Source of the DNA: Escherichia coli
GTDB taxonomy: Bacteria > Pseudomonadota > Gammaproteobacteria > Enterobacterales > Enterobacteriaceae
NCBI RefSeq assembly: GCF_003334335.1
Contig: NZ_QOWQ01000088.1
Length of the DNA: 2,395 bases
Strand: one strand, 5' to 3'
The translations under genes were made by a program, and so were the position numbers. The first letter of the stretch is position 1, and the number at the start of each line of letters is the position of its first letter. Positions 2,234-2,380 of the stretch are shown in pieces. The notes beneath the pieces are model-generated. The model was given only the letters and a program-made list of their open reading frames with translations, had not been told where the DNA came from and did no database searches.

Positions 2234-2257
2234 AACCACCGCCAGGTGGTTTTTTTT
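2234..2257 (+). terminator. Rho-independent terminator (tR'-like, possibly bidirectional)
   Basis: Stem AACCACC (2234-2240) pairs with GGTGGTT (2245-2251) around loop GCCA, followed by a run of eight T (2250-2257). An A-tract (2230-2235) precedes it, so the structure is symmetric and could terminate in both directions. Confidence 0.75.
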
Positions 2258-2380
2258 ATGTCCGAAAATCGCGTCAGTACAGTAAACGCGCTGGTGGCGG
2301 TGAATACCTGTCTTTCAGCTTGCTGGCTTTTTCGACAAGAGTTATTGGTGTGTCACGTTAACCGGAAAAGGGAAAAAGAC

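Follow-up and report, generated by a model that had tools for sequence, protein, structure and literature searches.

A perfect 8-bp inverted repeat joining the late terminator and the leader Chi site of an Escherichia coli lambdoid prophage is probably a coincidence of recombination

Results

The late-gene switch and its downstream leader

The stretch of Escherichia coli DNA analysed here (2,395 bp in total, referred to throughout as the window) carries the late-gene switch of a lambdoid prophage, consisting of a Q82-family antiterminator gene, a putative late promoter PR', a short leader and the terminator tR'. The features of the switch, and of the leader and open reading frame (ORF) which follow it, are:

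1479-2168, + strand: Q antiterminator gene of the Q82 family (Pfam PF06323, Phage_antiter_Q, E=5.3e-82)
2152-2190, + strand: putative PR' late promoter region, from a reading of the sequence
2195-2227, + strand: leader hairpin of the short PR'-tR' transcript (inverted repeat I5; present in the MFE and centroid structures)
2230-2258, + strand: tR' intrinsic terminator (stem 2230-2240/2245-2255, loop GCCA at 2241-2244, U-tract reaching 2257)
2311-2380, + strand: nearly invariant leader common to all Q/PR' types, from alignment and fold
2381-2395, + strand: start of a 65-amino acid ORF which continues past the end of the window (RefSeq CDS in the related loci L001, at 6282-6479, and L205)

The encoded Q protein is a full-length member of PF06323, covering positions 1-217 of the 220 in the model, and its gene has 77% nucleotide identity to Q of phage 82. 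PF06323 (Q82) is one of three recognised families of lambdoid Q antiterminator (PMC9388147). Positions 2100-2395 were found to be 99.7% identical to a prophage in E. coli EC931, where RefSeq names the Q product 'bacteriophage antitermination protein Q' and gives the order as DUF968, RusA resolvase, Q, a 65-amino acid hypothetical protein, a DUF3927 mini-protein, DUF6645 (annotated as a large protein), DUF1378, DUF826 and holin. The locus resembles the lambda-type late switch in its order, with a RusA and Q module (the Q being of a recognised family) followed by a putative promoter region, then by a structured leader of short length and by a strong intrinsic terminator ahead of the late/lysis genes, and also in that the PR'/leader/terminator cassette changes with the type of Q and the downstream leader is shared.

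As Q belongs to the PF06323/Q82 family, the 210 nt located 3' of the gene would correspond to PR', a short leader and tR'. Two candidates for PR' were read from the sequence, the first comprising TTGCAA (2152-2157) and TATGTT (2175-2180) separated by 17 nt, with a start near 2187, and the second having TATAAA(T) at 2184-2190 as its -10 element, with a start near 2196. In a multiple alignment TATAAAT lines up with the TAAATT -10 element of lambda/933W-like PR' leaders. Neither candidate reached the 9-of-12 threshold of a consensus promoter scan, and transcription from PR' would begin near 2187 or 2196. The terminator lies where such a switch would place it. Phage 82 PR' was considered as a reference for the transcription start and set aside, as the phage 82 sequence record extends no further than the stop codon of Q and no PR' sequence turned up in the literature searched.

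In the known lambdoid scheme, Q-modified RNA polymerase reads through tR' when Q is made. In the case of Q21 and Q-lambda, the protein builds a nozzle onto the RNA exit channel and thereby keeps the terminator hairpin from forming (PMC9388147), so that readthrough by this mechanism, which was shown for Q21 and Q-lambda only, would need no competing RNA helix.

The 65-amino acid protein is named either 'hypothetical protein' or 'TrmB family transcriptional regulator' in RefSeq and has 586 relatives in IMG/VR. The leader between 2258 and 2381 is non-coding, since homologs carry indels of 1-2 nt and a 7-nt deletion ahead of the AUG at 2381. An ATG at 2258, which adjoins the U-tract of the terminator, was considered as an in-frame extension to the ATG at 2381 (41 additional codons) and rejected because the 1-2 nt indels of the homologs fall within 2259-2300. 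Phage PhiR5_1 is annotated with a longer CDS from the equivalent of ~2346, against which the 7-nt deletion argues. A predicted hairpin (2341-2354/2378-2390) buries the AUG of the ORF.

The terminator and a predicted short RNA

The tR' hairpin, AAAAAACCACC-GCCA-GGTGGTTTTTT (2230-2255), has a loop of 4 nt and 11 perfect stem pairs, which the fold extends to 13, and is followed by T8, thereby showing the features of an intrinsic terminator, with a folding energy of -16.4 kcal/mol (z=-7.0). Compensatory change was evident in this helix among 69 homologs, with 28 cells changed on both sides compared to 9.3 in shuffles and a covariation score of 0.152 compared to 0.103; neither the score nor the cell count was reached by any of 500 shuffles. 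The stem is preceded by A6 and followed by T8, and the terminator pattern was matched on both strands, a layout which makes tR' potentially bidirectional.

The RNA from 2195 to 2258 was found to fold into two hairpins (2195-2227 and 2230-2255) with a combined energy of -27 kcal/mol (z=-5.6). The predicted constitutive PR'-tR' RNA (from ~2187 or 2196 to 2258) would be ~62-72 nt in length and would comprise two stable hairpins together with an A-rich linker and a tail of U8. The PR'-tR' RNA of lambda (6S RNA) is 194 nt. StxS, an Hfq-binding small RNA which derives from PR' transcripts terminated at tR' in Stx phages, is 258 nt in length (PMC7547250), considerably longer than the RNA predicted here; the likeness between the two lies in a constitutive PR' transcript that would end at tR' during lysogeny, with two stable hairpins and the U8 tail in the predicted RNA. 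On the basis of these predictions the RNA may be a prophage small RNA of the StxS or 6S kind.

When the window and positions 2150-2395 were screened against Rfam 15 at E<=10, there was no match at the gathering score, the best reaching 29.4 bits against a threshold of 54. The sub-threshold matches (STnc370 at 29.4 bits, isrK at 19.4 and isrD at 17.8, in addition to Phe_leader and RNAI) rest mainly on the terminator hairpin. The STnc370 match hints at an antisense small RNA, transcribed from the - strand and terminated by the same, potentially bidirectional hairpin; this was considered and rejected, as no promoter-like site was called upstream on the - strand.

The inverted repeat and its expectation by chance

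An earlier note on this DNA had described a perfect inverted repeat of 8 bp linking the terminator to a site further downstream. The features which bear on it are:

2237-2244, + strand: left repeat arm, CACCGCCA, comprising 4 nt of the tR' 5' stem and the 4-nt loop
2290-2297, + strand: Chi site, GCTGGTGG, an exact match co-oriented with late transcription
2295-2302, + strand: right repeat arm, TGGCGGTG, comprising the last 3 nt of Chi and a variable pentamer
2298-2302, + strand: hypervariable pentamer, directly 3' of Chi, with the allele CGGTG in the window

The left arm on the + strand is the exact reverse complement of the right arm, with a spacer of 50 nt, and the repeat was confirmed by the sequence itself, by pattern search and by a repeat finder; the pattern search of the window gave just two occurrences of the 8-mer, one on each strand. 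The placing of the left arm in the stem and loop of the terminator was also borne out, the arm being composed of CACC, with which the 5' stem ends, and the loop GCCA of the hairpin at 2230-2255.

In dinucleotide shuffles of 2100-2395, perfect inverted repeats of 8 bp or longer numbered 0.85 per 296 nt on average, and 57% of shuffles had one or more. When the terminator was kept fixed and the 137 nt downstream were shuffled, 8 nt perfectly complementary to the hairpin, at whichever place along it, arose in 5.6% of cases, a frequency which is unremarkable for a post-hoc observation. Nine further inverted pairs of 7-11 nt lie within the same 296 nt. The 8-bp repeat is a real coincidence of strings and no functional feature. 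Two readings had been given equal standing in the earlier note, namely coincidence arising from Chi-like, GGTGG-rich sequence and a functional refolding of the leader; the former held and can be put more sharply, in that an exact Chi octamer at 2290-2297 overlaps the right arm by 3 nt, and the latter was not supported, for the reasons given in the following two sections.

Folding of the readthrough RNA

In the functional reading, TGGCGGTG would pair with the 5' arm and loop of tR' after readthrough by Q, dissolving the hairpin, refolding the leader and altering the mRNA stability or translation of the next gene. When the RNA of 2187-2395 or 2196-2395 was folded, the pairs of the terminator had probabilities of 0.89-1.00 and the eight proposed pairs a probability of ~3e-6. 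With the proposed helix forced as a constraint the energy was -55.3 compared to -63.2 kcal/mol without it, a structure less stable by 7.8-7.9 kcal/mol, such that the comparison of folds suggested in the earlier note favoured the terminator hairpin and went against pairing of the downstream copy with the terminator arm at a cost of ~8 kcal/mol.

The 8-bp duplex taken alone has an energy of -14.2 kcal/mol. The A-tract at 2228-2235 extends the terminator stem, and when it was omitted (fold of 2236-2303) the long-range helix became the MFE structure, at -23.9 kcal/mol. In 22 of 73 homologs, most of which have a CCCGCC-type terminator together with CGGTG as the pentamer allele, the readthrough leader is predicted at equilibrium to exchange the terminator hairpin for pairing between its 5' arm and the Chi block, while the probability of long-range pairing is <0.05 in 43 of the 73. 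As the outcome flips when the A-tract is left out and in other alleles, thermodynamics alone is insufficient and was rejected as the decisive test; the verdict rests mainly on comparison between relatives.

The position of the right arm also bears on its possible roles. It is transcribed ~45 nt after the termination decision and therefore has no role as an antiterminator or regulator of termination, and 78 nt separate its end from the AUG at 2381, so that it makes no contact with the ribosome-binding region.

Covariation and assortment of the two arms among relatives

Homologs were gathered from IMG/VR contigs and E. coli genomes by two routes which took no account of the arms, one via the downstream 65-amino acid protein and the other via a 16-nt anchor in the conserved leader, giving a collection of 106 distinct leaders. 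Covariation was tested on 69 distinct homologous sequences, all phylogenetically related, using 500 column shuffles of the partners. In the proposed helix 78.8% of cells pair compared to 78.2% in the shuffles, 77 of the 500 shuffles reaching 78.8%, and when the partner was slid by -3 columns the proportion of pairing cells was 82.6%. The central pair of the helix is broken in 48 of the 69 sequences, and all eight Watson-Crick pairs are kept in only two, namely the window and EC931. The terminator helix served as a positive control, the observed value being reached by 0 of 500 shuffles. The proposed terminator/anti-structure pair fails in both of the properties which define such pairs, competitiveness and covariation.

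It was also observed that the two arms part company among the closest relatives. A Q82-type leader and terminator identical to those of the window are followed by TGGTTGCG in L020, L065 and S1-CHI-01-A and by TGGTGGTG in L070, relatives with the same Q module, and conversely TGGCGGTG is found behind at least eight other terminators. One arm is thus missing where the region is otherwise conserved, an outcome which the earlier note had named as refuting the pairing. Permutation of the downstream blocks among terminators changed the mean duplex energy from -12.48 to -12.18 +/- 0.20 kcal/mol (P=0.07). This is not far from significance; the association between terminator type and downstream allele is nevertheless weak and non-significant, and is confounded by linkage over 50 nt. 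In pairing with terminator arms, the natural downstream block gave -12.5 kcal/mol compared to -8.7 kcal/mol for its mononucleotide shuffles, none of 300 shuffles reaching the natural value.

The haplotype of the window is rare. Of 5,426 complete E. coli genomes, 212 carry at least 80% of 2196-2312, and only one, EC931, carries it at an identity of at least 99%.

A conserved Chi site with a hypervariable 3' flank

The last 3 nt of the Chi site at 2290-2297 are shared with the right arm of the repeat. This leader Chi is exact in 89 of the 106 distinct homologous leaders, across unrelated Q/PR'/terminator cassettes, and at the level of loci it is present in 124 of 125 cluster members of the aligned leaders, which belong to unrelated PR'/leader clusters. 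In the alignment of 69 sequences the eight Chi columns are invariant or at least 90% conserved and most of the surrounding 60 nt is variable, the Chi block being the best conserved part of this otherwise variable leader.

The pentamer at 2298-2302, which lies between Chi and a conserved AATAC (2303-2307), comprises the least conserved bases of the region. At least 10 alleles were found among the 106 distinct leaders, the commonest being CGGTG (26), TCGTG (24), TTATT (18), TTGCG (18) and TTGTG (5). RecBCD nicks at the position of the pentamer, 3' of Chi. The pentamer overlaps positions 4-7 of the Chi 3' flank, which have been reported to modulate Chi activity (PMC5041463).

Three additional Chi sites were found in the window:

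94-101, + strand: Chi, same orientation as the leader Chi
278-285, + strand: Chi, same orientation as the leader Chi
736-743, - strand: Chi, opposite orientation

The window thus contains four exact Chi octamers in 2,395 bp, compared to 0.06 expected, three of the four being on the + strand. Across 197 related loci the density of Chi is 0.57 per kb in the co-oriented direction and 0.27 per kb on the opposite strand. A second co-oriented Chi lies ~215 nt downstream of 2290, past the end of the window (L001 6507-6514), inside the tiny DUF3927 ORF in most related loci, such that two Chi sites flank the 65-amino acid ORF; in related loci a second co-oriented Chi occurs at 0.83 per locus within the first 500 nt after the anchor.

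The leader Chi is on the same strand as Q and the late genes, which by the lambda convention, judged from gene order, is the top strand towards cos. Following the orientation rule for RecBCD entering from the right (cos-proximal) end (PMC12315714), it would be recognised by RecBCD from the cos-proximal end. Lambdoid phages are known to carry many Chi sites of this orientation in the interval from ori to cos (PMC12315714, PMC3784561). The locus shares with the Chi-rich lambdoid phages (the LLS class; Zheng et al. 2025, PMC12315714; Bobay et al. 2013, PMC3784561) a strong over-representation of exact Chi, mostly co-oriented with late transcription and situated between the replication genes and cos. 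An individual Chi that is conserved within a non-coding leader and marks a mosaic boundary was not found to be mentioned in PMC12315714 or PMC3784561.

A mosaic boundary and a recombinant joint beside Chi

In searches against phages and genomes, the matches to the window divided near 2232-2237, with positions 1-2237 (DUF968-RusA-Q-PR') matched by one set of phages and 2232-2395 by a different, much larger set. Part of 2100-2395 was matched by 2,350 of the 5,426 complete E. coli genomes, mostly from the terminator to the ORF, and only 300 of these also have this Q module. The same downstream leader is joined to many unrelated PR'/leader cassettes, each with a terminator hairpin of its own, examples being CCACC-GGAA-GGTGG, CCCGCC-GCCT-GGCGGG and CCCGC-TTTTT-GCGGG.

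Two relatives allowed the joint of the window haplotype to be located:

2266-2297: interval containing the recombination joint, from identity to two parent types

Over 2170-2297 the window is identical to S1-CHI-01-A, a relative with the same Q82 cassette, from which it then differs at 2298, 2299, 2301, 2308, 2309, 2324 and 2350. Over 2266-2395 there is no difference between the window and L037, a relative with a lambda/933W-like PR', and to the right of Chi the window is of the L037/L084 type. Identity to S1-CHI-01-A up to 2297 and to L037 from 2266 indicates a recombinant haplotype with its joint within 2266-2297, a stretch of 32 bp common to both parents of which the last eight bases are Chi. 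Exchange stimulated by Chi would be expected to leave its joint at such a place, 5' of a Chi oriented for RecBCD arriving from the cos side, but as a single case this is only suggestive.

Discussion

The repeat is best explained as the coincidence of two unrelated, individually functional elements brought together by recombination, a reading to which a probability of about 0.86 is assigned. The left arm is part of tR', which would stop constitutive PR' transcription just downstream of the Q82-family gene by means of its own hairpin of 11-13 bp and U-tract. The right arm consists of the last 3 nt of the conserved leader Chi together with the CGGTG allele of the pentamer. C-rich terminator arms (CCACC, CCGCC) are by their nature complementary to the GGTGG of the Chi block, where G-U pairs also count, so that some complementarity is seen in numerous relatives, in more than one register. 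The perfect 8-mer would have arisen when a PR'/tR' cassette of the Q82 type, with its CCACC-GCCA terminator, was joined to a leader of the CGGTG type, the joint probably falling within the 32 bp that end at Chi. There is no indication that the pairing is selected or used.

A functional helix formed after readthrough is considered highly improbable. In its favour, the 8-bp duplex is strong when taken alone and can be extended to ~16 pairs, it is the MFE structure without the A-tract, and analogous long-range pairing is favoured at equilibrium in 22 of 73 homologs. Its probability in the full-length RNA of the window is however negligible, it shows no covariation and has its central pair broken in 70% of homologs, the closest relatives with the same terminator have no right arm, and the haplotype occurs in a single genome; moreover, the downstream arm is made too late to affect termination and ends well ahead of the AUG, the ribosome-binding region being predicted to lie in a conserved hairpin of its own (2341-2390). 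The likeness to attenuators and riboswitch platforms is that a complement of one terminator arm lies nearby on the same transcript. In those systems, however, the competitor is upstream of or overlaps the terminator and forms first, whereas here it is located 50 nt downstream, covariation is absent and no Rfam cis-regulatory family scored above threshold. A broader version, in which complementarity between a C-rich tR' arm and Chi is selected across the family in any register and Chi is conserved at least partly as an RNA element, is also judged very unlikely. It would account for the conservation of the Chi block in a variable leader across unrelated PR'/terminator types, for the better pairing of the natural block than of its shuffles, and for the long-range fold predicted in about 30% of variants. 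Against it, pairing probability is <0.05 in the majority of the 73 variants, and terminators similar to GCCCGC-TTTTT-GCGGG, with a duplex energy of only -7 to -8.5 kcal/mol, retain an exact Chi, so that conservation of Chi does not track pairing. All eight bases of Chi are kept exact even outside any helix, which fits recognition by RecBCD better, as do the excess of co-oriented Chi and the second Chi downstream, and enrichment of Chi in this region and orientation is documented for lambdoid phages (PMC12315714, PMC3784561). The complementarity between terminators and Chi across relatives is accordingly read as a by-product of Chi composition. The remaining proposal, that the arms act at the level of DNA as half-sites for a protein, as a cruciform or as a recombination site, has the perfect symmetry of the two 8-mers as its sole support and is effectively refuted by the absence of the right arm from relatives which otherwise share the module; one arm is missing in nearly all relatives, a spacer of 50 bp is atypical for a dimeric operator, and the terminator and Chi fully account for the sequences of the arms.

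Beyond the preferred reading of the repeat as a coincidence, it is tentatively proposed that the leader Chi may be a recombination hotspot driving the exchange of Q/PR'/tR' cassettes between lambdoid phages which share the late leader. The window would then be a direct product of such exchange, the pentamer its footprint or a tuner of Chi, and the repeat an accidental by-product; this is a possibility to which less than an even chance is given.

As a regulatory element the repeat is of no importance, and it ought to be dropped from consideration as an RNA switch. Such pairs are a recurrent source of false positives, as a G-rich Chi near C-rich terminator stems yields long 'perfect' complementarities, which in some alleles even win MFE folds. 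The real elements at the locus are all of known kinds, namely an intrinsic terminator, a Q82-family late switch with a putative promoter, and a Chi site. Of greater interest are three by-products of the analysis, namely the Chi that is conserved at the boundary of the cassette, the hypervariable sequence on its 3' side and the recombinant joint beside it. With Chi placed exactly at the mosaic boundary between a Q-specific cassette and a shared late leader, and with an identifiable recombinant joint abutting it, the locus provides a testable case. If it is true that exchange at Chi shapes the pairing of antiterminators with late (or toxin) genes, this would bear on the reshuffling of modules of the kind found in Stx phages.
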